Shown piece by piece: positions 17,826 through 36,933 of a DNA stretch of 64,000 nucleotides. The stretch is from Acidobacteriota bacterium (lineage in GTDB: Bacteria > Acidobacteriota > UBA890 > WLXD01), in NCBI GenBank assembly GCA_965248695.1, contig CBDFKD010000002.1, positions 3,328,001 to 3,392,000 of the forward strand, read 5' to 3'. Every line of letters starts with the position of its first letter. Position 1 is the first letter of the stretch. Below the pieces are notes generated by a model that was given only the letters and a program-made list of their open reading frames with translations, was not told the origin of the DNA and did not search any database. The position numbers were made by a program, and so were the translations under genes.

Positions 17826-17827
17826 GG

Positions 17828-19108: not shown

Positions 19109-20272
19109 ATGAGTGTCCCTGAACCCGATGTCTCTGTGCTCACGCCTGCGCTCGGCAAGGCGCGGTGGCGCGCCATGGTGGGGGCCGTCGACGTCTGTTT
19201 CGGCCTCGGTGAGCGTGCCCGGGTGCCGTCGCTGGTCAGCGAGCACCATGCACGCCGGCCGCTGATCATCACCGACCCCGGTGTGCGGGCGACCGGTGTC
19301 GTGGACGAGCTCAGCGCCGCATTGACGCGTCTCGGCTGTACCAGCGCGATCTTCGACGGCGTCCAGGAGAATCCGACCACGGAGTGCGTCGAGTCGGGGA
19401 CGGAGGCGGCCCGGAGCCACGACGTCGATCTGCTAGTCGGGTTCGGCGGCGGCAGCGCAATGGATACCGCCAAGGGCGTAAACTTCCTGTACACCAACGG
19501 TGGTTGTATGGAGGACTACGAGGGAACCGGAAAGGCGCACGCCGATATGCTGCCTTCGATTGGAGTACCGACCACGGCCGGGACGGGGAGTGAGGCGCAG
19601 TCGTACGCGCTGATCTCGCGAGCCGACGATCATCGGAAGATGGCGTGCGGCGACCCGGGAGCTCGATTTCTCAGCGCCGTGCTCGACCCCGAGATCACCG
19701 GCACGGTGCCGCGCGATGTGCGCGTGGCAACCGGAATCGATGCCATCTCGCATGCCCTGGAGAGTCTGGTCAGCGCCCCCGCCAACCCTATCTCGAGGCT
19801 CTACAGCCGAGAGGCCTGGCGCCTGCTCGCAAACAGCTTCGAGCCGGCGGTGACCACCTCGGACGACGTCGACGCACGCGGCCGAATGCTGCTCGGGGCA
19901 CATCTCGCCGGTGCGGCGATCGAGCGCTCGATGCTGGGAGCCGCGCACGCCTGCGCCAACCCGTTGACGGCGCGGTTCGACGTCACCCACGGCATCGCGG
20001 TCGGGGTCATCCTGCCGCACGTGGTGCGCTTCAACCTGGCCAGCGACGATGCCGCGGCCGAGTACGAGGGGCTCGAGGCGGCCGACCTGCCCGGACGTCT
20101 CACATCGATGCTCCGCGGCGGCGGCGTGGCGACCCGCCTGCGTGATCATGCCGTGCCCGAGGCGAGCCTCGGCGCGCTTGCCTCGGAGGCGGCCGAACAG
20201 TGGACCGCCAACTTCAACCCGCGTCCAGTCGACGCGACGGACCTTCTGGGCATCTATGAATCAGCCTACTGA
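19109..20272 (+). CDS. Iron-containing (type III) alcohol dehydrogenase
   Basis: GGGSAMDTAK, PTTAGTGSE, DAISHALES, H..HG metal ligands. Confidence 0.92.
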   Translation: MSVPEPDVSVLTPALGKARWRAMVGAVDVCFGLGERARVPSLVSEHHARRPLIITDPGVRATGVVDELSAALTRLGCTSAIFDGVQENPTTECVESGTEAARSHDVDLLVGFGGGSAMDTAKGVNFLYTNGGCMEDYEGTGKAHADMLPSIGVPTTAGTGSEAQSYALISRADDHRKMACGDPGARFLSAVLDPEITGTVPRDVRVATGIDAISHALESLVSAPANPISRLYSREAWRLLANSFEPAVTTSDDVDARGRMLLGAHLAGAAIERSMLGAAHACANPLTARFDVTHGIAVGVILPHVVRFNLASDDAAAEYEGLEAADLPGRLTSMLRGGGVATRLRDHAVPEASLGALASEAAEQWTANFNPRPVDATDLLGIYESAY

Positions 20273-21398
20273 GCCCCGGTTACCGCTTCCATCCTTGGTC
20301 CGTGGTGTCGCAATCGTGGTCTGTGGCGCCCTGGCCACCACCGGCATCGCCCGCGGTGGACCCGACGACAACGCCTGGCGGGTATTTCGCGGCAACGCCC
20401 AGCTCACCGGTACCGCCACGGTCGAGATTCCGGCGGCGCCCGAGCCTCGCTGGGTCTTCTCGGCCGCCGACAGCATCGAATCGAGCGCCGCGATCGCCGA
20501 CGGCCGGGTGTTCGTCGGCTCGCTCGACGGCCACCTGTACGCGCTGGACCTGGAGAGCGGTGCCGAGCTATGGCGATTCGACACCGGCATCGAGGTGAAA
20601 TCCTCGCCTTCCGTGTTCGGCGACACGGTCTACTTCGGTGACGAATCCGGCAAGTTCTATGCGCTCGACGTCTCCACCGGCAGTGAGCGATGGTCGTACC
20701 AGACCGGCGGTGGCATCGTCTCGGCGGCCAACTACGCGGAGGGGATGCTGATCTTCGGGTCCTACGACAACCATCTCTATGCCGTCGCCGCAGCAGACGG
20801 CAGCCTGGTGTGGCGCCTCGAGACCGGCGGTTATGTGAACGGCACTCCGGCCATTTTCGACGGCAAGGTGATCTCGGTAGGCTGTGACGGCGTATTGCGG
20901 CTCGTGGCGCTCGCCGACGGTGCCCTGCTCGGCACTGTCGAGATCGGAGCCTACGTGGCCGCCAGCCCCGCGATACACGATGGCGTGGCGTACTTCGGCA
21001 CCTACGAGAATCAGGTCTTGGCCGTCAGCCTGGCAGGCGAGCGCCGATGGGCCTATGAGCATCCGAAGCGAAAGTTCCCGTACTACTCCTCGGCCGCGGT
21101 GACCGACGAGGTCCTGGTGGTCGGCGGGCGCGACAAGATGGTGCACGGGATCGATCCCGCCAGCGGCGAGTCTCGCTGGACCCACACCAGCGGTGCCCGC
21201 GTCGACTCGTCGCCTGTCATCGTCGGTGATCGCGTCTTCGTCGGCGGTAGCTCCGGCGACCTGGTGGCCCTCGACGTGCGAACAGGAACAGTTCTGTGGC
21301 AATTTGAGACCGGGTCGTCGATCGTCGCATCGCCAAGCCTGGCCTCCGGGCGCCTCGTCATCGGGACAGAGGACGGCGACCTCTACTGCTTCGGTTGA
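20256..21398 (+). CDS. Exported PQQ-binding-like (BamB-like) beta-propeller protein
   Basis: Signal peptide, WRVFRGN, about 8 repeats of SSP....V.VG..DG.LYALD..SG...W.F. Confidence 0.88.
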   Translation: MNQPTEPRLPLPSLVRGVAIVVCGALATTGIARGGPDDNAWRVFRGNAQLTGTATVEIPAAPEPRWVFSAADSIESSAAIADGRVFVGSLDGHLYALDLESGAELWRFDTGIEVKSSPSVFGDTVYFGDESGKFYALDVSTGSERWSYQTGGGIVSAANYAEGMLIFGSYDNHLYAVAAADGSLVWRLETGGYVNGTPAIFDGKVISVGCDGVLRLVALADGALLGTVEIGAYVAASPAIHDGVAYFGTYENQVLAVSLAGERRWAYEHPKRKFPYYSSAAVTDEVLVVGGRDKMVHGIDPASGESRWTHTSGARVDSSPVIVGDRVFVGGSSGDLVALDVRTGTVLWQFETGSSIVASPSLASGRLVIGTEDGDLYCFG

Positions 21399-21403
21399 GA
21401 TCG

Positions 21404-22777
21404 ATGGACCAGGAATTACTGCCGGACGCCGATTCGTCGCCGGACTTCCGACCCGAGCCAGCTACGTCGCGCCAGCAACAGGAGGCGACCGACGTCGGCA
21501 GCGTATTCGTCTCGAACTATCCGCCGTTCTCGCAATGGACCGTTGAACAGCTGCCCGCTTACTGCCAGGCGCTGGAAACAGTCACAACCGATGCGGCCCC
21601 ACCGCTCGGCCTCTACCTGCATATCCCGTTTTGCCGCAAGCGCTGCAAGTTCTGCTATTTCCGTGTTTACACGGACAAGAACGCCGACGAGGTCGAGGTG
21701 TACTGCGATGCGCTCGCCCGCGAGATCGAGCGCTACGCGCAAGCGCCCGCGATCGCCGGCCGGCCACTGCGGTTCGTGTACTTCGGCGGCGGCACGCCCT
21801 CGTATATTGCCGCCAAGCACCTGCAGGCGTTGGTGGCTCGCGTGCGCACGGCGATGCCCTGGGACGCAGTCGACGAAATCACCTTCGAGTGCGAGCCCGG
21901 CACCCTGAGTCAGGGCAAGCTCGAAGCGATCCGCAAGCTCGGAATCACCCGGCTGAGCCTCGGGGTGGAGAACTTCAACGACGAGATCCTGCAGTTGAAC
22001 GGTCGCGCCCACGTCGGCAAGGAGATCGTTCGAGTCCTGCCATGGATTCATCAGCTGGCGTTCGATCAGCTCAACATCGACCTCATCGCGGGCATGATCG
22101 GCGAAACATGGGAAACGTGGCGCGACACCGTGCATCGGACGATCGACGCGCAGCCGGACTCGGTGACCATCTACCAGATGGAGCTGCCCTACAACACGCG
22201 CTTTTCGAAGCAGTTCCTGGACGGCACCCTGGAGGTCCCGCTGGCCGACTGGGCACTGAAGCGCGAGTGGCACGACTACGCTATCGAGAAGCTGCTAGCG
22301 GCAGGATTCGAGATCTCCAGCGCCTACACCATGGTCAGACCCGACAAGCGATGTGATTTCGTGTACCGTGACGCGCTCTGGCATGGGGCCGATATGCTCG
22401 GAACCGGCGTGTCCTCGTTCGGACACCTGAGTGGCGTCCACGTGCAGAACACTGCTAACTGGGCCAAGTACCTGGAGACGGTGAGCAACGAGGAGTTGCC
22501 GGTCGAGCGCGCCTTTGCAACCAGTGCCGACGACCGCCTGATCCGCGAGACCATCCTGCAGCTCAAGACAGGATCCCTTGCTGCAGCCTATTTCTCGGAC
22601 AAGTTCGACGTCGACGTTCTCGAGCGCTTCGCCGCGACCTGGGAGGTGCTCCAGTCGCGCGGCATGGCGGTGATCAACGACGACGGTGTGGCGTTGACGC
22701 GCCAGGGACTGTTGCAGGCGGACGGCCTGCTGCCGGAGTTTTACGCCGAACGCTATCGCGACGCTCGGTACACGTAA
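21404..22777 (+). CDS. HemN-like (class C) radical SAM enzyme
   Basis: LYLHIPFCRKRCKFCYF (CxxxCxxC), YFGGGTPS, TRLSLGVENF, NIDLIAG, HemN C-terminal domain. Confidence 0.9.
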   Translation: MDQELLPDADSSPDFRPEPATSRQQQEATDVGSVFVSNYPPFSQWTVEQLPAYCQALETVTTDAAPPLGLYLHIPFCRKRCKFCYFRVYTDKNADEVEVYCDALAREIERYAQAPAIAGRPLRFVYFGGGTPSYIAAKHLQALVARVRTAMPWDAVDEITFECEPGTLSQGKLEAIRKLGITRLSLGVENFNDEILQLNGRAHVGKEIVRVLPWIHQLAFDQLNIDLIAGMIGETWETWRDTVHRTIDAQPDSVTIYQMELPYNTRFSKQFLDGTLEVPLADWALKREWHDYAIEKLLAAGFEISSAYTMVRPDKRCDFVYRDALWHGADMLGTGVSSFGHLSGVHVQNTANWAKYLETVSNEELPVERAFATSADDRLIRETILQLKTGSLAAAYFSDKFDVDVLERFAATWEVLQSRGMAVINDDGVALTRQGLLQADGLLPEFYAERYRDARYT

Positions 22778-22780
22778 CCG

Positions 22781-24082
22781 ATGCAACGTCGCGCATCTGG
22801 CAGCGTCGCAGCACCTGCGATGGTCGTGCTCGTGGCGACCGTTCTGGCGCTCACCGGACCCGGCGTGCCGGCAGGGATCGATGCGGTCGAGCTGGCCGGC
22901 GACAGCGCCCAGTCTGCGAGCGCGACCCGCGATTGGCCGCAGCTAAGAGGCCCCAACGCCGACGGCATCTCGCCGCAGACCGGGCTGTTGACCCAATGGC
23001 CGCAATCGGGGCCGCGAGAGATCTGGCGCGTGCCTCTTGGCAAGGGATTCTCCGGCGTGTCCGTTGTCGGCGATCGCGCCGTCACCATGTTCGGTCGCGG
23101 GGGCACCTACCTGGGAGCCTTCGATACAGCAACCGGAGCCGAGCTCTGGCGGCTGCGCATCGACGAGATGTACCGCAACAGCTCCGGCGATGGCCCACGC
23201 TCCACTCCGACCATCGACGAGGGCCTCGCGTTCGTCATTAGCGGCCGCGGTATGCTCGCGGCGGTCGCGGTCGAGACCGGTGACACCGCCTGGCGGCACG
23301 ATCTACGGGGCGAGTACGGAGCCTCGGGGCCGAACTGGGGGTTCTCCACGTCGCCGCGTGTGTACGGTGATCTCCTCCTGGTGGAGGCCGGCGGGCGTGA
23401 TGCGGCGCTGGTGGCGTTCGACAAGCGCAGTGGCCGCGAAGTCTGGCGCGCCGCGGGAGACCAGCCGGGTTACTCGACGCCGCTGCTGGTGCGGATCGGC
23501 GGCCGCCAGCAGGCGGTTTTCTTCACCGGAAGCCGCATTGTCGGGGTGAATCCGACGAGCGGCGCCCTGCTGTGGGGTCTTCCCTGGGAAACGACGTTCG
23601 GCGTCAACGCCGCGACGCCGATCTTCGTACCTCCCGACAAGATTTTCGTCTCATCCGGCTACGGCGTCGGGGCAGCGCTGCTGCGCGTCACCGCGACCGC
23701 TCGAGGCGGCGTCGAAACCGTGTGGCGAACACGGGAGATGAAGAACCAGTTCAGTAGCTCGGTGCTGGTCGACGACTACATCTACGGATTCGACAACTCG
23801 ATCCTGGAGTGTATCGAGCTGACCCGGGGTGAGAGAATGTGGCGGGCTCGCGGCCACGGACAGGGCTCGTTGCTTTACGCAGACGGGCACCTGATCGTGC
23901 TCGGCGACCGTGGCTCTTTGACGCTCGTCAAACTCAGTCCCGGCGAGTACCTTCCCGTGGCGCAGACCCAGGTCTTCCGAAGCCGTACCTGGACCGCGCC
24001 AACGCTAGCAAACGGAGCTCTTTACCTACGTGACGAAGAGGAGCTCGTGGCCCTGGCGCTGACCGTACCGAACTCACCCTGA
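22781..24082 (+). CDS. Exported PQQ-binding-like beta-propeller protein
   Basis: DWPQLRGP, GPRSTP, GFSTSP, GYSTP, TWTAP..ANG.LYLRD. Confidence 0.88.
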   Translation: MQRRASGSVAAPAMVVLVATVLALTGPGVPAGIDAVELAGDSAQSASATRDWPQLRGPNADGISPQTGLLTQWPQSGPREIWRVPLGKGFSGVSVVGDRAVTMFGRGGTYLGAFDTATGAELWRLRIDEMYRNSSGDGPRSTPTIDEGLAFVISGRGMLAAVAVETGDTAWRHDLRGEYGASGPNWGFSTSPRVYGDLLLVEAGGRDAALVAFDKRSGREVWRAAGDQPGYSTPLLVRIGGRQQAVFFTGSRIVGVNPTSGALLWGLPWETTFGVNAATPIFVPPDKIFVSSGYGVGAALLRVTATARGGVETVWRTREMKNQFSSSVLVDDYIYGFDNSILECIELTRGERMWRARGHGQGSLLYADGHLIVLGDRGSLTLVKLSPGEYLPVAQTQVFRSRTWTAPTLANGALYLRDEEELVALALTVPNSP

Positions 24083-24160
24083 CCCGTAGCTCGATAGGAT
24101 GCTGCCGGGCGCCAGTAGCTGTCGCCGGCAAAGCAGATCCCCGACCCTGGATACTCGACC

Positions 24161-26287
24161 GTGCGAATACTCAGAACCACCCTCTGTTTGGCGCTGACCG
24201 TGGCACCGGCGACGGCCGCCGCACAGTCCGCATCTCAGGACGAGCCCGAGCAACAGCTGCCGCTGCGAGCAACGGAGTTCATCTTCGTCGAGGGGAGCTT
24301 GCCGCTGATACCGAGCGGCAACACGATCGCCTCGAAGCTGCCGTTGCCGTTGCAGCTCACCCCCAACAACGTCGGCATCGTCACGGCAGGGCTCTTCGAA
24401 CAGCAGCGCGCTCACGTGCTCGGCGACGCGTTGATCAACGTCAGCGGCCTGAACGTGCAGCCAGGCTTCGGCGGCGTGCACGACTTCTTCGTCGTACGTG
24501 GCTTCGATTCGATCAGCAGCAGCTTGATTCTCACCGACGGCGCCCCGGAGCCCGAGGCCACCTTCTACCAGCTCTACAACGTCGAGCTGGTAGAGGTCCT
24601 GAAGGGACCGGGAGGCTTTCTGTATGGCAGTAACCCGCTCGCCGGTACCGTCAACCTGGTGCGAAAACAGCCGTTCGCGACGCGCGGGCTTCGCGTAAGC
24701 ACCTCAGGCGGAAGCTTCTCCACGTTTGACGGCACGATCGACGCCAACCATGCGTCCGCCGACGGGCGGGTGGCGTTCCGGCTCAACGCGCTGGTGCGCG
24801 ACGCCGGCGGGTACCGTGACGGTCGCAGTGGCAACGCCGTGGCGCTCAACCCCGCGCTGACCTGGCAGATCGCCGACCGCCACTCCCTCAACGCCAACTT
24901 CGAGTACGCACGCGCAGACTTCAGCCCCGAGGCCGGCGTGCCGTTGCTGTTCAACGAGATTCCGCCCGTCCGCCGTGAGAACAACTACAACGCCGCCAGC
25001 GATCGATCCGAGCAGGACGTGTACCGCTTCCAGATCGACTACGAGGGGCACCTCAGCGACACCGTGCGAATTCGCAACAAGCTCTACTATCGCGGCCTTG
25101 ATTGGTTGTCAGACGGCACGCTGCTCATCGGCGCCTTCCCCGAGTTCGGTGCCGGATTCGTGCCCACCGGCCGCACGGTGGTAGCGCGATCACAGATCCA
25201 GCTCAACGATCGGCAGAAGATCCTGGGCAATCAGTTCGAGGCAATCTTCGATTTCGATACCGGCGCGGTGCGGCACAACCTGCTCGCCGGCATCGAAGCC
25301 TCGCGCCACACCGACGACTTCACCATCGACGCGTTCCTGCTGGGGTCCGTGGAGCTATTCAGTCCGGTGGAGCCGGGTGGACCGCCGTTCCCGCTCGGGA
25401 GCGTCGGCGCCGGAAACGCCCGCAGCTTCGTGGTCGCCCCCTACGTCATCGACCAGATCACTTTCGCCGATCGGCTACAGGTGCTCGCCGGAGCCCGCCT
25501 CGACAACATCGACTTCGACGATCAGCTGACCGGTCGCTCCCGCAACGACAGCAAGCTGTCGCCGATGTTCGGTGCGGCGTGGGCCGCCAGCGAGGACGTT
25601 TCGATCTATGGCAACTACTCGCGCTCGTTCGCACCGCCGTCGCCGCGGACGTTCGAGGATCTCGCTCCCGAGGAAGGCGAGCAGGTCGAGCTCGGGCTCA
25701 AGCTGCGCTTCCTCGACGGTCGAGCGCGAGCAACCGCCGCCGTCTACCGTCTGGTGCGCGACAACATCGCCATCCCGGATGACAACGGCTTCAGCCAGCA
25801 GATCGGCAACCAGCGCTCATCCGGCTTCGAGGTCGAGGTAGCCGCCGAGCCCGGTGCCGGCTTCCGGGGCGTAGTGTCGTACGCGTACAACGATGCCGAG
25901 CTCACCGAGTTCAGCGAGCGCGTCACCGGCTTCACACCGTTCGGCGTGCCGTTCGAACAGACGATCGACCGTTCGGGCAATCGGCCGGCGTTCGCTCCCG
26001 AGCACCTGCTCAACGTGTGGGTCAGCAAGACGCTTGTGTCGGGGCTCGGTGTGAGCCTCGGTGGCCGCTACATCGGCAATCAGTTCATCGCCGAGGACAA
26101 CGCCTTCAACATCGACAACGCCTTCATCGTTTCGGGCGCTCTGGCGTACGACTGGTCGCGCTACCGCATCAGCGTCAACGTGCAGAACCTGACCGATTCG
26201 GCCTATTTCGCCCGCGGTTTCGGGTCGCAATCGGTGACGCCAGCGAACCCCGTGGCTGCCACCCTGCGTCTCGGCTACGAGTTCTGA
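24161..26287 (+). CDS. TonB-dependent outer-membrane receptor
   Basis: Signal peptide; plug with VRGF and VEVLKGP..LYGS..AGTVNLV.K; C-terminal VQNLTD..Y...LGYEF. Confidence 0.92.
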   Translation: MRILRTTLCLALTVAPATAAAQSASQDEPEQQLPLRATEFIFVEGSLPLIPSGNTIASKLPLPLQLTPNNVGIVTAGLFEQQRAHVLGDALINVSGLNVQPGFGGVHDFFVVRGFDSISSSLILTDGAPEPEATFYQLYNVELVEVLKGPGGFLYGSNPLAGTVNLVRKQPFATRGLRVSTSGGSFSTFDGTIDANHASADGRVAFRLNALVRDAGGYRDGRSGNAVALNPALTWQIADRHSLNANFEYARADFSPEAGVPLLFNEIPPVRRENNYNAASDRSEQDVYRFQIDYEGHLSDTVRIRNKLYYRGLDWLSDGTLLIGAFPEFGAGFVPTGRTVVARSQIQLNDRQKILGNQFEAIFDFDTGAVRHNLLAGIEASRHTDDFTIDAFLLGSVELFSPVEPGGPPFPLGSVGAGNARSFVVAPYVIDQITFADRLQVLAGARLDNIDFDDQLTGRSRNDSKLSPMFGAAWAASEDVSIYGNYSRSFAPPSPRTFEDLAPEEGEQVELGLKLRFLDGRARATAAVYRLVRDNIAIPDDNGFSQQIGNQRSSGFEVEVAAEPGAGFRGVVSYAYNDAELTEFSERVTGFTPFGVPFEQTIDRSGNRPAFAPEHLLNVWVSKTLVSGLGVSLGGRYIGNQFIAEDNAFNIDNAFIVSGALAYDWSRYRISVNVQNLTDSAYFARGFGSQSVTPANPVAATLRLGYEF

Positions 26288-27561
26288 TGACGTCGGCGGC
26301 TGAAGCCTACGACGTCATCGTCGTGGGCGGCGGTCCAGCAGGGTCGGCGACCGCGACGATGACCGCAGATGGTGGGCGGCGAGTGCTGCTCCTGGAACGC
26401 GAGGAGTTTCCGCGTTTCCGCATCGGCGAGTCGCTCATGCCGGCGACCTACTGGACGCTCCAGCGCCTCGGCGTGCTGGAGCACATGAACGACAGTGTCT
26501 TCCCCCACAAGCACTCGGTTCAGTTCTTCTCCAAGAGCGGCCGTGCATCGGTGCCGTTCTACTTCTCGGAGACCGAGCCCGGACCGAGCGCCCAGACCTG
26601 GCAGGTGAATCGCGGGGAGTTCGACCTGATGCTGTTGAACAACGCCCGCGAGCACGGGGTCGAGGTGCACGAGCGCGCCCGCGTGACGGACATGCTGTTC
26701 GACGGAGAGCGCGCGTCCGGTGTCGAGGCGAGCTTCGCCGACGGATCTACTCGACGGCTGCAGGCCGGCGTTGTCGTCGACGCCACCGGCCAGTCCGCCA
26801 TGCTCGCCAAGCGACTCAACCTCCGACAGGAGGATCCCAACCTCAGGAACTGCTCGTTCTACACCCGGTATGAAGGCGGCTGGCGCGGGGAGGGAGTCGA
26901 CGAGGGGGCTACCCTGATCCTTTACACGGAGCAGCCGCGAACCTGGTTCTGGTACATCCCGTTGCCGGATGGGGTCGTGAGCGCCGGGGTCGTGGGCCCT
27001 ATCGATCGATTGGTGACGGGCCGCGCGCGGAACCCGCAGGTGGTCTATGACGAGGAGGCCGCAGGATGTCCGGCGCTGCTGGAGAAGATCGCCCAAGCCC
27101 GACAGCTGCATGAAGTGCGGGTCCTGAAGGACTTCTCATACGCCAGCAAACGCGTCGCCGGTGACGGCTGGGTGATGGTCGGCGACGCCTTCGGCTTTAT
27201 CGATCCGATCTATTCATCGGGCGTGTTCCTCGCCCTGAAGGGCGCCGAATACACCGCCGACTCGATACTCGATGCGTTCGATCACGGAGAGCTGTCGGCG
27301 ACCCGGCTGGGACAACACGGCGACGAGTTCCTCGCAGGCGTCGAGGCCATGCGCAAGCTGGTGTACGCCTACTACTCTGAGGAATTCAACTTCGCGAAGT
27401 TCCTGGGTAAGTATCCCGATCTCAAGGACGATCTGGTGAACCTGCTGATCGGCAACGTTTACAGAAAAAACGTCAGCCGGCTGCTAGAGTCGATGGAGGA
27501 ATTCTGCCCGTTACCGGCGTACGAGCCCTTCCGACTCCAGGAAACGACGGGCAAGCGCTAG
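26287..27561 (+). CDS. Flavin-dependent halogenase family protein
   Basis: GGGPAG, FPRFRIGES, candidate catalytic Lys in FPHK, WFWYIP (WxWxIP), GDAFGFIDPIYSSGV; TGATG coupling to the receptor. Confidence 0.87.
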   Translation: MTSAAEAYDVIVVGGGPAGSATATMTADGGRRVLLLEREEFPRFRIGESLMPATYWTLQRLGVLEHMNDSVFPHKHSVQFFSKSGRASVPFYFSETEPGPSAQTWQVNRGEFDLMLLNNAREHGVEVHERARVTDMLFDGERASGVEASFADGSTRRLQAGVVVDATGQSAMLAKRLNLRQEDPNLRNCSFYTRYEGGWRGEGVDEGATLILYTEQPRTWFWYIPLPDGVVSAGVVGPIDRLVTGRARNPQVVYDEEAAGCPALLEKIAQARQLHEVRVLKDFSYASKRVAGDGWVMVGDAFGFIDPIYSSGVFLALKGAEYTADSILDAFDHGELSATRLGQHGDEFLAGVEAMRKLVYAYYSEEFNFAKFLGKYPDLKDDLVNLLIGNVYRKNVSRLLESMEEFCPLPAYEPFRLQETTGKR

Positions 27562-27622
27562 CTGCCTGGGCGACCGAAGCCGATAAGCGCCAAGCCGCAG
27601 TCGACCGTCCGATGAGGTGCGT

Positions 27623-27844
27623 ATGAGTGGCAACCGTCTGAAGCTGTACGGCCTGCTGGCGCTGCTGTATGTCCTGCACACCGATTGGTGGCTGTGGAAC
27701 GACGCGCGGCTGTGGTTCGGGTTGCCGGTGGGGTTGCTGTACCACCTCGTGTACATGCTGGCGACGGCCGTGGTGATGTACATGCTCGTTACCCAGGCGT
27801 GGCCACGGCACCTGGAGCTCGATGACGCCGGAGATGACCGATGA
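27623..27844 (+). CDS. DUF3311-type small 2-TM membrane protein (symporter accessory subunit)
   Basis: LHTDWWLW...WFGLPVGLLYH; ATGA overlap with the symporter gene. Confidence 0.75.
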   Translation: MSGNRLKLYGLLALLYVLHTDWWLWNDARLWFGLPVGLLYHLVYMLATAVVMYMLVTQAWPRHLELDDAGDDR

Positions 27845-29310
27845 CGCTGGCGATCATCGCCGCCTACATGGTGGTCGTGCTGGCGATCGGCGCGTCCAGC
27901 AATCGGCTGTTCAAGCGCACCGGCGTCGACTACTTCCTCGCCACCCGTTCCATCGGCCCGTTCTTGCTGTTGATGTCGCTGTTCGGCACCAACATGACCG
28001 CGTTCGCGCTGCTGGGCGCATCGGGTGAGGCCTACCACGCCGGCATCGGGGTGTTCGGCTTCATGCCGGCGATCTCAGGACTGTTGATCCCGGCAATTTT
28101 CTTCTTCGTCGGCACGCGGGCGTGGGCGGTGGGGAAGCGCCACGGCTACGTGACGCAGGTGCAGTTTTTCCGCGACCGCTGGGGCTCGGATTCGCTCGGA
28201 CTGCTGCTGTTTGTGGTGCTGGTTGGCCTGGTGATCCCCTACCTGCTCATCGGCGTGATGGCCGGCGGGGTGACGCTCAACCAGGTGACCGGAGGCGAGG
28301 TGCCGGAATGGGTCGGCGGTCTGGTGATCTGCCTGGTCGTGTTGACCTACGTCACGTTCGGGGGATTGCGCGGCACCGCCTGGGTCAACACATTCCAGAC
28401 GATCGTCTTCATGGTGCTCGGCGCGGCCACCGTCTTCGTAGTGTTTCGCAACATGGGTGGCCTCGGAACGGTGATGGGCAGAATCGCGGCGGAGGCGCCG
28501 GAGCTCCTGGTACGGGAAGGCAATTTCTCGACGGTGCGCTGGCTGACGTACTCGCTCATTCCCCTGTCTCCGGCGATGTTCCCGCACATGTTCATGCACT
28601 GGCTGAGCGCCAGGCGGCTGGAGAACTTCCGCCTCACAGTGATGGTGTATCCGCTGTGCATCGCCGCTGTCTGGCTCCCCCCGGTCCTGCTCGGGATCGC
28701 CGGTCGGCTCGACTTTCCCGGGCTCGTCGGCGGCCAGTCCAACTCGATCCTGGTCCGCATGATCACTATGCACGCCCCCGGAGTCCTCGCCGGGCTGCTG
28801 GCAGCCGGGGTGTTCGCCGCCGTGATGTCGTCGCTCGACTCACAGGTGCTGTCGCTGGGAACCATGTTCACAGAGGACATCGTGCGCCACTACGGTCGGG
28901 CCGACGGCCTCACCGACCGGCAACAGATTCTCTCCGGACGGCTCTTCGTGGCGGGGATCCTGGCGTTCACCTACGCCCTGTTCCTGGTCTCGAACCGCAG
29001 CATCTTCGACCTCGCTACCTGGTCGTTCACCGGGTTCGCGGCGCTGGCCCCGATCGCCATCGGTGCGCTGTTCTGGCGCCGTAGCACCAAGGAGGGGGCC
29101 ACGGCCTGCGTCGGCACCGTGGTTGTCCTATGGAGCTATTTCTTCTACCAGGGGTGGGGTGACCGCACCTATACCGTCGGCGGCAGCGGCGTCATGGCGG
29201 TGGCGGTGATCCTGGCGGCATCAACCGTGGCGATGGTAGTCGTGTCGCTGCTGACGACCCCGCCGGATGACGAGCACGTCAACCGATTCATCGCTCCGCC
29301 AGCCGGCTAG
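27841..29310 (+). CDS. Sodium:solute symporter family protein
   Basis: About 13 TM helices; DYFLATRSIG, YVTFGGLRGTAW, AAVMSSLDSQ. Confidence 0.92.
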   Translation: MTLAIIAAYMVVVLAIGASSNRLFKRTGVDYFLATRSIGPFLLLMSLFGTNMTAFALLGASGEAYHAGIGVFGFMPAISGLLIPAIFFFVGTRAWAVGKRHGYVTQVQFFRDRWGSDSLGLLLFVVLVGLVIPYLLIGVMAGGVTLNQVTGGEVPEWVGGLVICLVVLTYVTFGGLRGTAWVNTFQTIVFMVLGAATVFVVFRNMGGLGTVMGRIAAEAPELLVREGNFSTVRWLTYSLIPLSPAMFPHMFMHWLSARRLENFRLTVMVYPLCIAAVWLPPVLLGIAGRLDFPGLVGGQSNSILVRMITMHAPGVLAGLLAAGVFAAVMSSLDSQVLSLGTMFTEDIVRHYGRADGLTDRQQILSGRLFVAGILAFTYALFLVSNRSIFDLATWSFTGFAALAPIAIGALFWRRSTKEGATACVGTVVVLWSYFFYQGWGDRTYTVGGSGVMAVAVILAASTVAMVVVSLLTTPPDDEHVNRFIAPPAG

Positions 29311-29320
29311 CCGACCCTGG

Positions 29321-30619
29321 ATGCGTATCGCCTACATCACGGCCGGCGCCGCGGGGATGTACTGCGGTAGCTGTCTGCACGACAACACGCTTGCAGCGGC
29401 GCTGCAGCAGCGCGGACACGACGTTGCGCTGATTCCCATGTACACGCCGATTCGCACCGACGAAGACGATGTGAGCATCGACCGCGTCTTCTACGGCGCC
29501 GTCAACGTCTACCTGGAACAACGCTGGAAGCTGTTCCAGCGCAGCCCCGGCTTCTTGCACTGGCTGCTCGATCGGCCAGCCTTGCTGCGCGGCGTCTTAC
29601 GCCTGGCGGGCCCGAGCGCCACCCAGGGCGAGGAACTCGGGCAGCTGGCGCTGTCGGTGTTGCGCGGCGAGGACGGCCGTCAGCGTCCGGAGCTCGAGCG
29701 GCTGGTGGCGTGGCTGCGGGACGATTTCAAGCCGCAGATCGTTCACATAACCAACGCCCTCTTGCTCGGGCTGGCGCGCAGCCTCAAGCGCGAGCTTAGT
29801 GTGCCGGTGTTGTGCGGCGTCCAGGGCGAGGACCTGTTCATCGACGAGATAGTGGAGCCTTACCGAACACGCTTCGTGTCGGAGTTGCGGGCCCATGCCA
29901 TCGATGTCGACGGGTTCGTGGCACCGAATCGGTACTACGCTGACCACGTACGCGGCTACCTCGGGACAGCAGCCGAGAAGATTCGCGTGGTCAGACTCGG
30001 AGTCACACTGCACGGCCGCGAGACCCGAGCACGGCCCGCCGATGCCCCGTTCACCATCGGGTTTCTCGCCAGGCAATGTCCGGAAAAGGGACTCCACCGT
30101 CTCATCGCTGCTTTCCGTCAGCTGACCCAGCGCGCCGCCGATCAACCGATCCGCCTGCGCGTCGCCGGGTATGTGGGCAAGCGGGACGCGGCGTACGTGG
30201 ATGAGCAGCGACGCCTGGTGGCCGACCAGGGCTTGTCGGGCCAGGTCGATTGGGTCGGCGAGGTCGACCGCGACGCCAAGATGCAGTTTCTCGGTTCCAT
30301 TGACGTCCTCTGCCTGCCGACTGTCTACAGAGAATCCAAGGGACTGCCAGCGCTCGAGGCGATGGCCAGCTCCGTGCCCGTGGTAGTGCCCGCACACGGC
30401 GGCTTCCCTGAGCTCATCGAGTGGACCGGCGGTGGACTGTTGTTCGATCCAGACTCGGAGGAGGCCGTGGTGGACGCGCTCGAAGCGCTAATGCGCGATC
30501 CTGAGCGACGCCGTGAGCTCGGGCGCGCCGGTAGGCAGGTTGTCGAGCGCGAGCTCTCTGATGAAGCAATGGCGGCGGCAACGCTGCGTGAGTACGAGCG
30601 GTGGGTATGCACGAGCTGA
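29321..30619 (+). CDS. Glycosyltransferase family 4
   Basis: RQCPEKG, ESKGLPALEAMA (EX7E); unusual N-terminal GMYCGSC. Confidence 0.9.
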   Translation: MRIAYITAGAAGMYCGSCLHDNTLAAALQQRGHDVALIPMYTPIRTDEDDVSIDRVFYGAVNVYLEQRWKLFQRSPGFLHWLLDRPALLRGVLRLAGPSATQGEELGQLALSVLRGEDGRQRPELERLVAWLRDDFKPQIVHITNALLLGLARSLKRELSVPVLCGVQGEDLFIDEIVEPYRTRFVSELRAHAIDVDGFVAPNRYYADHVRGYLGTAAEKIRVVRLGVTLHGRETRARPADAPFTIGFLARQCPEKGLHRLIAAFRQLTQRAADQPIRLRVAGYVGKRDAAYVDEQRRLVADQGLSGQVDWVGEVDRDAKMQFLGSIDVLCLPTVYRESKGLPALEAMASSVPVVVPAHGGFPELIEWTGGGLLFDPDSEEAVVDALEALMRDPERRRELGRAGRQVVERELSDEAMAAATLREYERWVCTS

Positions 30620-31026
30620 CGATTCAACGCAAAGTCGAGTTCTCTGACACGGACATGGCGGGAATTGTGCACTTCTCCCGACTGATCGTATTCATGGAGA
30701 ACGCCGAGCATGCGTTCATCGAAGCCCTTGGCGCGAGCGTGCATATGGACCACGATGGGGTACATCTTGGATGGCCACGCGTCGCGGTGGAGGCACAGTT
30801 CAAGTCGCCGGCACGGTTCAACGATGTCGTCGACATCCACCTGCGGGTGCTGCGCAAGGGAAGCAAGGCGCTGACGTACGGGTTCACCATCTGCGTCGGC
30901 GACCGCCTGGTCGGTACCGGGACCATGACATCAGTCTGCTGTGCGATGGAGGAATCGGGGCCACGGGCCATCGAGATTCCCGCTTTCCTCGCCGATCAGA
31001 TCCAGGAAGCTGGGAGCGTCGAGTAG
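30607..31026 (+). CDS. Hotdog-fold acyl-CoA thioesterase (4-HBT/YbgC-like)
   Basis: VEFSDTDMAGIVHF...ENAE. Confidence 0.88.
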   Translation: MHELTIQRKVEFSDTDMAGIVHFSRLIVFMENAEHAFIEALGASVHMDHDGVHLGWPRVAVEAQFKSPARFNDVVDIHLRVLRKGSKALTYGFTICVGDRLVGTGTMTSVCCAMEESGPRAIEIPAFLADQIQEAGSVE

Positions 31027-31053
31027 CCAGATCGACGGATCCGGAGGAATCGC

Positions 31054-31722
31054 GTGGACCTGCAGGTTGCCAACGTCGTCAAGCAATTCGAGATCGGCGA
31101 GTTGACCGTGCCGGTGCTCGACGGGGTGTCGTTCGACGTTGCCGCGGGCGACTCGGCGGCCATCATGGGGCCCTCGGGCTCCGGCAAGAGCACGCTGCTG
31201 CATATCATCGGCACACTCGAGCCACCGACGAACGGCACGGTGAAGATCGGTGGTCGCGAGCCCCTCGGTCTGAGCGAGCCGGACATGGCGCGATTTCGTA
31301 ACGAGTCCATCGGCTTCGTCTTTCAGGATCATCATCTCCTGCCTCAATACAGCGTGCTCGAGAACACGCTCGTGCCCACGCTGGCTTTCGGCGGACGCGA
31401 AGCCGGTGATGAACGCGCCCGGCGGCTGTTGGGGCGTGTCGGGTTGGGCCATCGACTCGACCATCGGCCAGCGCAGCTGTCCGGCGGCGAGCGCCAGCGG
31501 GTAGCGATCGCGCGTGCCTTGATCAATCAGCCGGCGGTGCTGCTTTGCGACGAGCCGACCGGGAACCTCGATCGCCACACTGCCGATGCGGTCGCGGATT
31601 TGCTGCTGGAGTTGCATGAGCACGAGTCCAACGTGCTCTTGGTGGTGACGCACAGCTCAGATCTGGCGCAGCGTTTCAGACGCCGGCTGGAGTTGCGGGA
31701 GGGCCGGTGCATAGAGGGCTGA
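31054..31722 (+). CDS. ABC transporter ATP-binding protein (LolD/MacB type)
   Basis: GPSGSGKS, FVFQ, LSGGERQR, LCDEPTGNLD, VTH. Confidence 0.93.
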   Translation: MDLQVANVVKQFEIGELTVPVLDGVSFDVAAGDSAAIMGPSGSGKSTLLHIIGTLEPPTNGTVKIGGREPLGLSEPDMARFRNESIGFVFQDHHLLPQYSVLENTLVPTLAFGGREAGDERARRLLGRVGLGHRLDHRPAQLSGGERQRVAIARALINQPAVLLCDEPTGNLDRHTADAVADLLLELHEHESNVLLVVTHSSDLAQRFRRRLELREGRCIEG

Positions 31723-34700: not shown

Positions 34701-35141
34701 GGTTTCGACGTCACCCGAACGGCCGACAGGATTGCCGGCTTCCTGGTAGTGCAGAACACCTACCTGTCGACATTCCAGGCGCTGGGAGGGCTAGGCTTGC
34801 TGCTCGGCACCATGGGACTGGGCATCGTCCTGGTGCGCAACGTGATCGAGCGCCGCGGTGAGCTCGCCACGCTGCGCGCCTTCGGGTTCCGGCGTGCTTT
34901 TCTGTCGCGCATGGTGCTCGCAGAAAACGCGTTTCTGCTCACCGTTGGCACGCTGATCGGCACCGTGGCGGCGCTGCTGGCGATCGCCCCGCGGTTCGCC
35001 CTCGGGACGTCCGAGCTACCGTGGGCCGCCCTGCTACCGACCCTGGCTGCAGTCCTCGTGGTCGGCATGCTCGCAAGCCTGGTTGCCGTGCTCGGCGCGC
35101 TGCGCGTGCCGCTGCTCCCGGCCCTCAAGGCGGAGCGTTGA
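31707..35141 (+). CDS. Large duplicated FtsX/MacB-type ABC permease (1144 aa)
   Basis: Two TM blocks with ERRGKEIGLL.SVG and ERRGELATLRAFGF, separated by large periplasmic domains. Confidence 0.88.
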   Translation: MHRGLTHHWRVNITVALAVAVCTAVLTGALLVGDSVRASLRDLTLDRLGHIDSSLVAERFFRADLAGEIAAQPDFDPDFERVVGAILLRGNAVHAGSRARAAQINVLGIDEAFAEMFAEPTTSEVFQHQTGVTPPALSFARASGQLFPSIVINTALQRELGAELGDQLLVRFRLGSEVPRDTLLGSRETEDVVGTIRTSLIRVVPDRGIGRFDLNPHQASPLSAFLSLDDLQTALEQEGRVNSLLLDRRGDSNTDADLLLVDTLTLADVGLELRPIEQPSGTTLIEIESDGFVLRPALVDTIEATAVDLGASAQRLQLYMSNGLTIADRQTPYSMVLAMEIVDDATPFDGLQLAGGGPVPALADDEILLNEWTATDLGAEVGDELRMTYYVVGLDEQLRSEETAFRVAGVVAMHGLAVDNELTPEYPGIEGVDNIADWEPPFPVDLSVIRDVDEEYWDAYRGTPKSFVTASTGRRLWSTRYGATTTVRVALPAGADAATFATELGSKLLQRLQPADYGFRFVDIKAQGLEAAAGANDFGQLFLAFSFFLILSALMIVGLLFTLGIERRGKEIGLLLSVGYPLKRVQRRFLVEGTVIALLGGAAGLGAAVLYGNLMLWGLRTIWLAAVGSPLLYLHVLPATLLVGLVISTMAAVGSIWTAVRRLRRLPPTRLLSGVTRLPAAQLTQRRRPWLAATCFVAALALLAFALAAGQTANPAIAFGIGALLLIGGLATFAAWCRRPHGRLSSARFAAVGMAVRSSSWNPSRSILSVALVASACFVIVTVAGNTRDPGREAHVIEEGAGGYELMAVADVPVHQNLNDAAGRFDLGFDADAETYMDAVRIEQLRLVPGDDASCLNLYQPRRPRLLGVPDSHIDRGGFRFAQVSADLDSTGNPWELLRTDLGPGVIPAIGDANSMQWILKLPVDGELMIEDEHGEPLMLRLVGTVQESIFQSELLISEANLLRYFPSRSGFSYFLIDTPAGRHSEVTAALEDRLDRFGFDVTRTADRIAGFLVVQNTYLSTFQALGGLGLLLGTMGLGIVLVRNVIERRGELATLRAFGFRRAFLSRMVLAENAFLLTVGTLIGTVAALLAIAPRFALGTSELPWAALLPTLAAVLVVGMLASLVAVLGALRVPLLPALKAER

Positions 35142-35470
35142 TGACCGGCGACGAACCGAGCGCCTGGCACGAGGTATACGACATCGTGCGGCAGATCCCC
35201 TCCGGGCGAGTGATGAACTACGGTCAGGTGGCCGAGCTTCATTCGCGGCCATTGACCCCGCGCGCTGTCGGCTGGGCCATGCACGACTGCCCGGACGACG
35301 TTCCGTGGCATCGAGTCGTGAACGTGCGCGGAGAGTGCTCGACCGACCGCGTCACACCAACTGCCCCGGGGCGCCAGCGGGGGCGACTGGAAGCCGAGGG
35401 GGTGCGGTTCGGTACCGATGGACGGGTCGACATGGCGTGTCACCGCTGGCGACCGGACGACGACCTCTAG
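35141..35470 (+). CDS. Alkyltransferase-like protein (ATL, MGMT family)
   Basis: VRQIPSGRVMNYGQVA, PRAVGWAM, PWHRV (Trp replacing catalytic Cys); TGATG coupling. Confidence 0.88.
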   Translation: MTGDEPSAWHEVYDIVRQIPSGRVMNYGQVAELHSRPLTPRAVGWAMHDCPDDVPWHRVVNVRGECSTDRVTPTAPGRQRGRLEAEGVRFGTDGRVDMACHRWRPDDDL

Positions 35471-36933
35471 TGGCCTGTATCTTTCGATGGCAGACGTACC
35501 GATTCGTCGCCGGGCGTGGCCGGCTCGTCGCTGATCTCAGTCAAGGCGCGATCGAACGCAACCACGGTGGCGTCGATATCGGCGGAGCTCGTGCGGTAGT
35601 TGCAGATGCAGGCACGCACCACCTCCGCCCCGCTCGGCAACCGAACCGTCGAGGCCCAGGCCTGGCCCGAGGCAACGACCCGCGCCACCACCTCGGACGC
35701 CGTGACAAGCCCCGATTCAATCCGAGGATGGCTGAAGCAGACCAGCGGCAGCGGCGTACGGTTGCACAACAACCAGCCGGACTCCTGCAGCCGCTCCCGT
35801 AGCCTCTGGCCCATTTCGGCCTGGTGGTCGACGCGCTCACCGTAGCCCTGCAGTCCGACCTCGGCCAGCGCCATGAACACCTTCAACCCGATGAACCGCC
35901 GACTCCATTGCCAAGAAACCATGTACGGGTCGTCGGCACCCTCGGGGCTGGGCGGTATGTACGTTGCGTCGACCTCGAAAGCCGCCCGTACCGCCGCCGG
36001 GCGGCGGCTGAAGAACATGCCCGCGGCCATCGGCACCGAGAGCCACTTGTGGGCGTCCCAGGTCATCGAATCCGCCGACTCGATTCCGGCGAGTACCGGC
36101 CTGAGACGCTCCGACAGCAAAGCCCCACCACCCCAGGCAGCGTCGGCGTGCATCCAGAGATGCTCTTCGCGGGCGATCTCAGCGATCGATTCGAGCGGAT
36201 CAATCACTCCCGTCGAGGTCGTACCAGCGGTGGCAACCACCAGAAACGGATGCTCGCCGCGCGCCCGGTCTCGGCGCAGCTGCTCGCGCAGCGCCGACAC
36301 ATCCATGCGGAAGTCGTCGTCGACCGGAACCCGCCGCACCGCGTTGCGGCCCAGGCCGCAGGCCACGGCGATCTTCGGAAAGCTATCGTGACCCTGTGTC
36401 GAGAGATACAGGGTCGGCTGCGCCGGTAGCGCCCGCAGCCCGGTCTTCGGCAGCGACGGGAAGGCGGCAACCAGCGCCGCAAGGGTTGCAGTCCCGTTTG
36501 CCTCGGCCCCGCCGCTGGTGAAATGGGCCATGCCACCATCGAGATCGAGGTCGAAGAGTCGCCCCAGCGCCACGAGTACCAAGCGCTCGATCTCCTGGGC
36601 AGCGGGCGAATGGTCCCACGCTGCGAGCTGTGGATTGAACAGCGCCACGAGCGCGTCGGCAACCACCGTGATCGCTGGTACCGCCGGATTGAACAGGCCG
36701 AAATAGCGCGGGTGCGTCACCTGCACCGTCTCGGCCTTCAGACGCTCGATCACCCGCGTGACGAGCTCGTCGACGGAGGTCGGGCGCGACAGGTCGAAGA
36801 GAGCGCCGATCCGGGATCGAACCTCGTGCACGGCGCGCGGCTCGGAGACCGGCCCCTCAGCGACCTTCGCGTTCGTCGCCGACACGACCTGGCGCAGGCG
36901 CCGCAGCGCCGCCGCCAGCTCTGCCTCAGACAT
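35467..36933 (-). CDS. Group II PLP-dependent decarboxylase
   Basis: HPRYFG, FTSGGAEAN, TAGTTSTG.IDP, HADAAWGG, DAHKW; likely ATG 36933 overlapping the upstream stop. Confidence 0.9.
   Translation of the reverse strand: MSEAELAAALRRLRQVVSATNAKVAEGPVSEPRAVHEVRSRIGALFDLSRPTSVDELVTRVIERLKAETVQVTHPRYFGLFNPAVPAITVVADALVALFNPQLAAWDHSPAAQEIERLVLVALGRLFDLDLDGGMAHFTSGGAEANGTATLAALVAAFPSLPKTGLRALPAQPTLYLSTQGHDSFPKIAVACGLGRNAVRRVPVDDDFRMDVSALREQLRRDRARGEHPFLVVATAGTTSTGVIDPLESIAEIAREEHLWMHADAAWGGGALLSERLRPVLAGIESADSMTWDAHKWLSVPMAAGMFFSRRPAAVRAAFEVDATYIPPSPEGADDPYMVSWQWSRRFIGLKVFMALAEVGLQGYGERVDHQAEMGQRLRERLQESGWLLCNRTPLPLVCFSHPRIESGLVTASEVVARVVASGQAWASTVRLPSGAEVVRACICNYRTSSADIDATVVAFDRALTEISDEPATPGDESVRLPSKDTGH

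Follow-up and report, generated by a model that had tools for sequence, protein, structure and literature searches.

The locus described here lies on contig CBDFKD010000002.1 of an Acidobacteriota genome (GenBank assembly GCA_965248695.1, hereafter G000; 5.9 Mb, 66% G+C), whose closest public relative, L004, is labelled as an Acidobacteriota metagenome-assembled genome. The window, that is, the whole 64,000-nucleotide stretch that was analysed (C2:3328001-3392000), contains at positions 19109-35470 a row of 13 genes, all on the plus strand, encoding among others a HemN-like radical S-adenosylmethionine (SAM) enzyme, a putative flavin-dependent halogenase, a glycosyltransferase, importers, an ATP-binding cassette (ABC) machine and two PQQ_2 beta-propellers (Table 1). 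Pfam and NCBIfam searches and a check of the gene junctions agree with an earlier note on this DNA: each gene has the domain and coordinates given there, neighbouring cluster genes are separated by -44 to +78 nucleotides, and the TGATG couplings at 26287 and 35141 and the ATGA overlap at 27841 were all verified. That note had also seen neither an assembly-line core nor a precursor peptide, and indeed no gene of the block has a Pfam match to a non-ribosomal peptide synthetase (NRPS), polyketide synthase (PKS) or carrier-protein domain, and none of the intergenic gaps of the block is long enough for a precursor peptide gene. A scan for promoters and terminators returned 0 promoter-like and 6 terminator-like sites, no excess over shuffled sequences. 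A look-up of sequencing runs listed no RNA data and four DNA entries from one study, possibly the source sample.

We tentatively interpret the first 12 genes (19109-35141) as the main part of a conserved envelope pathway whose genes are split over three places; the two smaller parts lie upstream on the same chromosome. In the pathway that we provisionally favour, an imported aromatic acid would be halogenated, given a one-carbon (C1) modification, reduced, glycosylated and then passed to secreted propellers in the envelope. The pathway is uncharacterised; the present analysis shows which genes are there, how they are arranged and co-occur in other genomes, which motifs the halogenase has and which folds the permease and propeller 1 adopt in models.

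Table 1. Genes of the cluster, related genes elsewhere in G000 and families of related loci (ORF, open reading frame)
Feature	Position	Strand	Domain or family evidence	Recurrence among 80 related loci
Iron-type alcohol dehydrogenase (Fe-ADH; module II)	19109..20272	+	PF00465, 149 bits, and ADH_Fe_C; best NCBIfam match ErcA, 231 against a cut-off of 550	63, upstream of the radical SAM gene
Propeller 1	20295..21398	+	PQQ_2, 201 bits; Beta-prop_ACSF4, 199.5 against a cut-off of 133	73
HemN-like radical SAM enzyme	21395..22777	+	Radical_SAM and HemN_C (Pfam)	
Propeller 2	22781..24082	+	PQQ_2, 142 bits	42
TonB-dependent receptor (TBDR), outer membrane	24161..26287	+	plug PF07715 and barrel PF00593	29
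Putative flavin-dependent halogenase	26287..27561	+	Trp_halogenase PF04820, 83.6 bits against a cut-off of 21	54
DUF3311, small membrane subunit of symporter	27617..27844	+	PF11755, 37 bits; ATGA overlap with symporter gene	18
Sodium:solute symporter (SSS), inner membrane	27841..29310	+	PF00474, 122 bits; PutP 106 and PanF 92 bits, both below cut-off	19
GT4 glycosyltransferase (module I)	29267..30619	+	Glycos_transf_1, 110 bits	21
Hot-dog thioesterase (4HBT/YbgC-like), cytoplasmic	30601..31026	+	4HBT_2 and 4HBT; YbgC 52 bits (cut-off 141)	13
ABC ATPase, LolD/YbbA/MacB class	31054..31722	+	ABC_tran; LolD TIGR02211 257.6 against 307.75; YbbA 203 against 336 bits	26 by tblastn, including paralogues of ~30% identity; 19 by ORF clustering
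YbbP-type permease, 1144 residues	31707..35141	+	two FtsX domains	
Alkyltransferase-like protein (ATL)	35141..35470	+	PF01035 (DNA_binding_1); TGATG-coupled to permease gene	
EhpF-like and aldehyde dehydrogenase (ALDH)-like gene pair of G000	C2:3283990-3286519 (L086:7951-10525)		60% (EhpF-like, to that of L017) and 46% (ALDH-like) identity	
Propellers 4L and 3 (extra propeller families) and second 4HBT thioesterase of G000	C2:3249852-3254082 (L085:9852-14082)		51% and 59% identity (propellers)	
PaaK-like aryl-acid ligase			NCBIfam PaaK 266 bits, below cut-off; clustering of all ORFs	48
Divergent ALDH-family protein			ORF clustering	37
TAXI binding protein			in the Poribacteria loci examined and L083	24
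Short AMP-binding (EhpF-like) protein			ORF clustering	21
Further propeller families			ORF clustering	17 and 11
Single-domain EamA-like membrane protein, ~160 residues			ORF clustering	10

Extent and modular make-up of the conserved block

With the radical SAM protein as query, species-representative genomes yielded at least 560 relatives, of which the best 80 loci were used; they carry mostly Poribacteria, Latescibacterota and Acidobacteriota labels (including Thermoanaerobaculia and Holophagales), with one KSB1. Window proteins were compared with these loci by tblastn and counted at a coverage above 0.5, and the resulting counts (Table 1) are lower bounds, since the loci end 10 kb downstream or at contig ends. 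The window gene order is retained at 45-65% identity in Acidobacteriota, Latescibacterota, Poribacteria and KSB1, and because the same order recurs in other phyla the arrangement lies far beyond chance. The flanking genes (two PhzF-family genes, GNAT, DUF6515, a pyridoxal phosphate (PLP)-dependent decarboxylase, Ada/Ogt and a metallo-beta-lactamase-rhodanese protein) were found again among the 80 loci only in the near relative L004, and ATL lies 3' of the permease gene in one of five genomes examined, which is the near relative. The conserved block is therefore 19109-35141, that is, 12 genes.

The thirteenth gene, which the earlier note had included in the unit, was rejected as a pathway member and is a lineage-specific passenger. 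It has PWHRV where O6-methylguanine-DNA methyltransferase (MGMT) has PCHRV, which we take to be the motif of the active-site Cys, so gene 13 is a true ATL; it probably belongs with the alkylation-repair neighbourhood at 35141-37816. Near it, an AraC-helix-turn-helix/MGMT fusion of the Ada/Ogt-like kind (36926-37816, minus strand) overlaps the 5' end of the ORF for the PLP-dependent decarboxylase (35467-37041, minus strand).

Clustering of all ORFs in the related loci added several families to those of the window (Table 1). In Poribacteria, a TAXI-type binding protein occupies the region of the cluster where the window has the symporter. Two further groups of genes are present in G000 at a distance: adjoining genes for an EhpF-like and an ALDH-like protein lie 61 kb upstream of the cluster, and two extra propellers together with a second thioesterase lie 95 kb upstream. 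Among relatives of the same family, the genes usually found upstream are separated from the cluster by 31 kb to 1.5 Mb.

The division of these genes into two modules emerged from genomes that have the permease and EhpF-like genes and no radical SAM gene. All six of those examined possess a compact operon of EhpF-like, ALDH-like, GT4, ABC ATPase and permease genes, with GT4 between the ALDH-like and ABC genes and the ABC gene adjoining that of the permease in every case. A propeller gene follows directly 3' in four of the six and an EamA-like gene lies nearby in two; the thioesterase was not found in these six minimal loci. The five genes of this operon, the last encoding the YbbP-type permease, make up module I, with a propeller gene usually next in line and, in G000, a thioesterase as well. 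Module II, a narrower addition, groups the genes for Fe-ADH, propeller 1, radical SAM enzyme and halogenase with those for either importers or a PaaK-like ligase; in the window it has importers and also includes propeller 2. There, it is joined with the distal half of module I into one block.

Co-occurrence was assessed in one sample of 251 genomes of the phylum with a completeness of at least 80%. The sample includes G054 and G155 (and, for the propeller counts given below, G029), and leaving these out shifts any count by at most 2. The radical SAM orthologue is present in 60 genomes (39 of 164 genera, and all eight members of its own family), the halogenase in 57, the EhpF-like protein in 69 and the permease in 75, the last including all 60 radical SAM carriers and all 69 EhpF-like carriers. 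Radical SAM enzyme and halogenase occur together in 56 genomes, the former alone in 4, the latter alone in 1 and neither in 190, so that the halogenase accompanies 56 of 60 radical SAM genes and is found in 1 of the 191 genomes without one. The corresponding figures (both, first only, second only, neither) are 57, 3, 12 and 179 for radical SAM enzyme and EhpF-like protein, 60, 0, 15 and 176 for radical SAM enzyme and permease, and 69, 0, 6 and 176 for EhpF-like protein and permease. Several of the mismatches come from fragmented assemblies (G177, G187, G097, G111). Permease and GT4 orthologues are also present in five of five Poribacteria genomes, at a distance of megabases from the radical SAM locus, so the genes keep company without being linked.

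These data bear on the suspicion that the row is a chance succession of independent small operons. Such a view could draw on the fact that module I and module II genes may lie far apart and that module I occurs without module II in 15 genomes. It is strongly disfavoured, to the point of being hardly credible, by an order kept across phyla, by near-perfect co-occurrence even between unlinked genes and by the tight or overlapping junctions. The earlier proposal of a conserved unit accordingly holds for 12 genes on both synteny and co-occurrence, whereas that of a single 13-gene pathway gives way to two fused modules. The aldehyde dehydrogenase that the earlier note associated with similar gene sets was also recovered, as the ALDH-like protein of related loci and of the distant upstream piece in G000.

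The start codon of propeller 1 is uncertain: its ORF is open from ATG 20049, and TTG 20295, the first in-frame start past the Fe-ADH stop, is the likeliest start. The genes for propeller 1 and the radical SAM enzyme overlap by 4 nucleotides and are translationally coupled. In some Poribacteria loci (L007:11394-15226), the radical SAM gene is immediately followed by an insert of two DUF488 genes and a RecQ-like helicase gene; the L007 helicase has DuOB and Gp157-like domains, and the inserted segment resembles a mobile or defence island.

Tailoring enzymes, import and the candidate substrate

The closest structures to the halogenase in the PDB are 8zop (230 bits), Mpy16 (5buk, 192), CndH (186), PltA (171) and Bmp2 (169), with CmlS also matched; a literature search on 8zop found nothing. 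The protein retains GGGPAGS (GxGxxG) and WFWYIP (WxWxIP), and the Lys of its PHKHS aligns with that of PKKFG in Mpy16 and QRKYG in 8zop; we take these to be the motifs and the catalytic Lys of flavin-dependent halogenases. Judged by these features, it is predicted to be a flavin-dependent halogenase of the Bmp2/PltA/Mpy16/CndH type.

The radical SAM enzyme falls below every NCBIfam cut-off of the HemN family (HutW TIGR04107, 193 against 400; HemN TIGR00538, 186 against 325; HemW, 146 against 205). Its best PDB match is HemN (1olt, 138 bits), and NocN (9p2u) scores 103. A CxxxCxxCxC motif with a fourth Cys is typical of HemN; the E. coli protein has CHKLCYFCGC, whereas the cluster enzyme has CRKRCKFCYF, with YF and no fourth Cys, as do eight of eight orthologues displayed. 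The orthologue group maintains 47-87% identity across the phylum. A signal-peptide-like N-terminus was seen in 0 of 80 radical SAM proteins and 0 of 53 halogenases. Taken together, these sequence traits mark the enzyme as a putative new, cytoplasmic branch of HemN-like proteins. Further relatives in kind are the class C radical SAM methyltransferases, such as NosN, YtkT/C10P and MenK. With HemN and this class it shares the CxxxCxxC radical SAM core and HemN_C; it differs from HemN in missing all the family cut-offs, in the lack of a heme context and in forming its own orthologue group. A heme-related reading, in which a ChuW/HemN-type enzyme would serve alongside the TBDR, was rejected on the HutW and HemN cut-offs and on gene context. 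Fe-ADH likewise scores under every NCBIfam equivalog cut-off, and from its family it likely converts an aldehyde to an alcohol.

The TBDR exceeds the cut-off of a siderophore-receptor subfamily (TIGR01783, 235.3 against 223.5) and falls far short of that for PqqU (34 against 1200). Its subfamily, the MacB-type exporter and the periplasmic proteins encoded in the cluster would suit a metallophore-type cycle, in which a small aromatic chelator is made, exported by a MacB-type pump, matured by periplasmic propellers and retaken via the TBDR; pyoverdine is exported by PvdRT, a MacB-type pump. Such a cycle is nonetheless very improbable here: the TBDR is found in only 29 of the 80 loci and was undetected in the Poribacteria loci and in the six minimal module I loci, and neither the Pfam matches of the window nor the families of the 80 loci include catechol, hydroxamate or NIS synthetase genes for a chelator.

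For the pathway that we favour, the question is where the aromatic acid originates. The chorismate lyase families PF04345 and PF01947 were not found in G000, and positive controls for both matched; because this genome lacks chorismate lyase, the acid would be imported across both membranes. Import of a precursor, as had been suggested earlier, thus appears plausible, with a TBDR and symporter standing where other lineages have a PaaK-like ligase. In four Acidobacteriota genomes (G255, G049, G077, G139; L115-L118), a conserved ORF of ~190 residues lies between the radical SAM and halogenase genes; its matches are weak and sub-threshold (PF01947, E 0.032 in one of four; PDB 2nwi, E 0.4), and it has no significant family. 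It is a candidate for a divergent protein of the chorismate-lyase fold. In the lineage of G000, we infer that the substrate is an imported aryl acid, probably of the hydroxybenzoate type.

Precedents for a stand-alone flavin halogenase acting on a simple aryl acid, without NRPS or PKS, are Bmp5/Bmp6 and BaaA/BaaB, associated with brominated 4-hydroxybenzoate derivatives (10.1101/723874). According to the available part of that report, BaaA/BaaB are a proposed route to 3,5-dibromo-p-anisic acid for which genetic validation failed. Unlike the Bmp6/BaaA type, G000 has no chorismate lyase and has importers instead, and the Bmp and Baa loci, as far as that part of the report describes them, have no radical SAM enzyme, reduction, glycosylation, type VII ABC machine or propellers.

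The same enzymes could alternatively serve uptake and catabolism or detoxification of an exogenous, possibly halogenated aromatic acid, with import, activation and reduction leading to a glycoside for disposal. The TBDR and symporter (TAXI in Poribacteria) are importers, a coenzyme A (CoA) ligase, thioesterase, ALDH-like protein and Fe-ADH are typical of aryl-acid metabolism, and cells are known to detoxify compounds by glycosylating and then exporting them. We consider this quite unlikely, as the retention of all halogenase motifs speaks for an anabolic function, enzymes for ring cleavage or ring reduction are missing from the conserved gene set, and a catabolic role is not obvious for either the radical SAM enzyme or the secreted propellers.

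The ABC machine and the secreted propellers

Hydropathy indicates that the permease has 10 transmembrane (TM) helices and periplasmic domains of ~510 residues (TM1-2) and ~240 residues (TM7-8). Its AlphaFold2 (AF2) model (pLDDT 81.8) finds E. coli YbbAP as the best Foldseek match (9ge7/9ge6; E 8.5e-18 over ~900 columns), followed by BceAB, MacB and LolCDE. There is no PF12704 match, and the Atlas feature MacB_PCD, at 0.95 for residues 32-540, serves as a lead only. As to membership of LolCDE, the LolD equivalog cut-off is missed (Table 1). The two FtsX domains, the predicted topology, the separate ATPase and the fold match together place the permease and ABC ATPase in the type VII ABC class with YbbAP/BceAB architecture. 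The MacB/Lol-type exporter of the earlier note is in this sense upheld, its closest fold being YbbAP, from a class that works with periplasmic partners.

YbbAP-TesA (9ge6-9ge8), as described in the available part of the source (PMC12646458), provides the closest comparison. YbbAP has 10 TM helices with periplasmic domains at TM1-2 and TM7-8, a topology shared with the permease, which also has YbbAP as its best fold match; in addition, each system has a separate ATPase of the LolD/YbbA class and is encoded beside a gene for a secreted protein. They differ in the first periplasmic domain, which at ~510 residues is here roughly twice the usual size, and identity is 12-13%. The partner of YbbAP, TesA, is an SGNH hydrolase, whereas the candidate partner here is a beta-propeller and the thioesterase is a cytoplasmic hot-dog protein.

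Propeller 1 is modelled as a confident eight-bladed propeller (AF2 pLDDT 94.5) with Foldseek matches to BamB and YxaL (TM-score 0.78-0.84), to tetrathionate hydrolase and to part of the far longer chain of a quinohemoprotein dehydrogenase. A hydrophobic or signal-peptide-like N-terminus in 64 of 72 propeller 1 orthologues and 57 of 59 members of the propeller 2 family predicts that both are secreted. Propeller 2 has paralogues elsewhere in G000 at 32-35% identity. Neither protein reaches the BamB model TIGR03300 (157 and 58 bits for propellers 1 and 2 against a cut-off of 285) or the PQQ alcohol dehydrogenase model TIGR03075 (94.6 and 26 bits against 480), and the mature proteins have ~340-400 residues compared with ~550-600 for the catalytic propeller of PQQ-dependent alcohol dehydrogenases. 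Thus, the likeness to BamB and YxaL lies in the fold of propeller 1 and in secretion; the differences are the missed BamB cut-off, the fact that no canonical lipobox was seen in the window propellers, and the placement of their genes in a small-molecule pathway, not with bam genes. The window holds a third propeller, a PQQ_2 protein at 45295-46740. Its inclusion in the pathway is unsupported, there being no orthology to the cluster propeller families, and it is not a notable presence because G000 has 159 loose PF13360 candidates in its 5.9 Mb.

Loose first-look PF13360 candidates were used as a proxy for propeller number, since the full match column saturates. Across the 251 genomes, radical SAM carriers (n = 60) have at least 21 such candidates and a median of 57.5, against a median of 9 in the 130 non-carriers with any match, of which 12 have at least 40; the 61 further genomes, with no match, all lack the radical SAM gene. 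None of the 75 genomes with the permease has fewer than 21 candidates, and the permease is present in 10 of the 12 radical-SAM-free genomes with at least 40, the exceptions being G137 and G237. Families with both carriers and non-carriers are divided: f29, f28, f38 and f2 agree with the propeller association, and f49, with six propeller-rich non-carriers, does not. Cluster presence and propeller richness thus go together, as the earlier note had expected; the tie is real, but it is an association seen in genomes that are related and not independent.

Nine loci of G000 exceed the PQQ-dehydrogenase (methanol/ethanol-family) cut-off, and pqqC was not found in this genome; the pqqC model matches 13 of the 251. 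True PQQ dehydrogenases are present in only 31 of 60 carriers and 25 of 191 non-carriers of the radical SAM gene; there is thus no tight link between the pathway and canonical quinoproteins. A reading as PQQ salvage is weakened by the same 31 of 60, by 19 genomes that have a PQQ-dependent alcohol dehydrogenase (PQQ-ADH) and neither pqqC nor the radical SAM gene, and by the low PqqU score of the TBDR. As a separate observation, 47 of the 56 sample genomes with PQQ dehydrogenases lack pqqC, and PQQ-ADH without pqqC suggests either widespread PQQ auxotrophy or another cofactor. One PQQ-ADH locus of G000 (C2:1375913-1377412) has an in-frame TAG.

From these observations, one might propose that the pathway makes or salvages a ligand or cofactor and that the type VII ABC machine loads it onto orphan PQQ_2/BamB-like propellers. 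The propeller counts of permease and radical SAM carriers agree with this, as do the propeller genes within the cluster and directly 3' of the permease gene, the cooperation of type VII ABC machines with periplasmic partners (PMC12646458, in the part available) and the nine PQQ-dehydrogenase loci of a genome without pqqC. We nevertheless regard it as unlikely. The BamB/YxaL fold of propeller 1 gives no pointer to a cofactor site, and nothing in the data shows the product to be a cofactor, as the earlier note had supposed. Moreover, of the permease-positive genomes, 15 are without the radical SAM enzyme and 18 without the halogenase; the decorated molecule is therefore no universal cofactor. 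G137, G237 and the six propeller-rich genomes of f49 also run counter to it, as does the patchy distribution of true PQQ dehydrogenases, and the propeller counts themselves are loose first-look candidates from related genomes. A more specific form, in which a small halogenated, C1-modified aryl glycoside would be drawn from the inner membrane by the YbbAP-like machine and loaded onto secreted BamB-like propellers as a prosthetic ligand, seems decidedly unlikely. If true, it would represent a new cofactor or ligand system and would account for the large 'empty' PQQ_2 propeller families in Acidobacteriota, Poribacteria, Latescibacterota and similar groups, most of which lack PQQ synthesis.

Proposed pathway, known relatives and neighbouring genes

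In the envelope pathway that we provisionally favour, module II would acquire and decorate an aromatic carboxylic acid, probably of the hydroxybenzoate type. The TBDR and the DUF3311/SSS symporter would import this acid across both membranes, the Bmp2/PltA/CndH-type flavin halogenase would halogenate it and the radical SAM enzyme would add a C1 modification. Module I would then reduce the carboxylate, by way of EhpF-like adenylation and the ALDH-like protein, with Fe-ADH carrying the product on to the alcohol; GT4 would glycosylate it, and the type VII ABC machine would pull the resulting amphiphilic product from the inner membrane and present it to the secreted BamB-like propellers. Which acid serves as substrate, how the steps follow one another, what reaction the radical SAM enzyme performs and what the propellers do are inferences.

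Several points weigh against this scheme. The substrates of the nearest halogenases with solved structures are carrier-protein-bound pyrroles or tyrosine, and the block has no carrier protein. Neither a PaaK-like orthologue (the best match, elsewhere in the genome, is 31% identical) nor one of the EamA-like small protein of fuller cluster versions was found in G000. The relationship of the ALDH-like protein to known aldehyde dehydrogenases is distant (40 bits), and a role as reductase would follow from analogy to EhpF/EhpG. The receptor subfamily of the TBDR also fits a metallophore cycle, and the hydroxybenzoate assignment leans on the genetically unvalidated BaaA/BaaB proposal. To our knowledge, type VII ABC machines have no trans-membrane channel, which leaves unexplained the route of a cytoplasmic glycoside to the outer leaflet. 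Finally, the genomes surveyed are related and not independent, so the co-occurrence counts overstate the support.

EhpF and EhpG, which convert a carboxylate to an aldehyde, belong to the pathway of the phenazine D-alanylgriseoluteic acid in Pantoea agglomerans (3l2k, 3hgu) and are the nearest precedent for the reductive step. The EhpF-like protein matches EhpF (3l2k) over essentially its full length (134 bits, E 6.5e-38; residues 23-358 of 370 against 21-353 of 366); like EhpF, it is short and lacks the C-terminal domain of acyl-CoA synthetases, with a weak AMP-binding match and no AMP-binding_C domain. In both systems an ALDH-family gene lies 3' of the EhpF-type gene. The systems differ in that no phenazine core genes are linked here, the two PhzF-family genes of the window recurring only in L004; the EhpF-like/ALDH-like pair of G000 itself lies outside the window.

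A literature search found one description of such a cluster, the orphan 'Halo_AMP' clusters of sponge metagenomes (Loureiro et al., bioRxiv 10.64898/2026.08.03.742642), which have no known product according to the available part of the preprint. Shared with the present loci are a halogenase with PaaK-like adenylating enzymes, a radical SAM enzyme, glycosyltransferase, thioesterase and TonB components and frequent PQQ-like domains, and the clusters were likewise assigned to Acidobacteriota, Latescibacterota and Poribacteria. The Halo_AMP rule requires an AMP-binding gene beside the halogenase, which the window does not have, and the focus cluster CC A contains P450s, of which the window cluster has none. 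The same available text makes no mention of a module of EhpF-like, ALDH, GT4 and YbbAP-type proteins, a two-module structure or a link to propeller-rich genomes; the present cluster may still correspond to one of the 20 components of that study.

A gene set held at 40-80% identity across several phyla usually signals an important function. Halogenase pathways are normally narrow, strain-level traits, and a single-copy halogenase pathway in a quarter of a phylum is unusual. The handles that this analysis offers are a five-gene core (EhpF-like, ALDH-like, GT4, ABC ATPase and YbbP-type permease) and a decorating module (radical SAM enzyme and halogenase), the hypothesis that the permease works with a secreted propeller partner, and a statistical tie to the unexplained PQQ_2 propeller expansion. 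The genomes of several carriers in the sample consist of a single contig, which suggests that these may be strains in culture; if they can be cultured, product and function are directly testable.

Elsewhere in the window, two adjacent PhzF-family genes with GNAT and DUF6515 genes lie directly upstream of the cluster (16013-18765, minus strand) and are divergent from it; they recur only in L004. A gene for a 786-residue fusion of FAD-binding monooxygenase-type and Old Yellow Enzyme domains (7127-9487, plus strand) has as neighbours genes for acyl-CoA dehydrogenase, enoyl-CoA hydratase and tryptophan 2,3-dioxygenase, with ORFs at 9647-10879 and 11601-13049 that have no Pfam match. Downstream (42922-44379, plus strand), a FabH-like ketoacyl synthase (KS) III gene is followed by a 135-residue ORF with an FtsX domain only, which may be a permease fragment.

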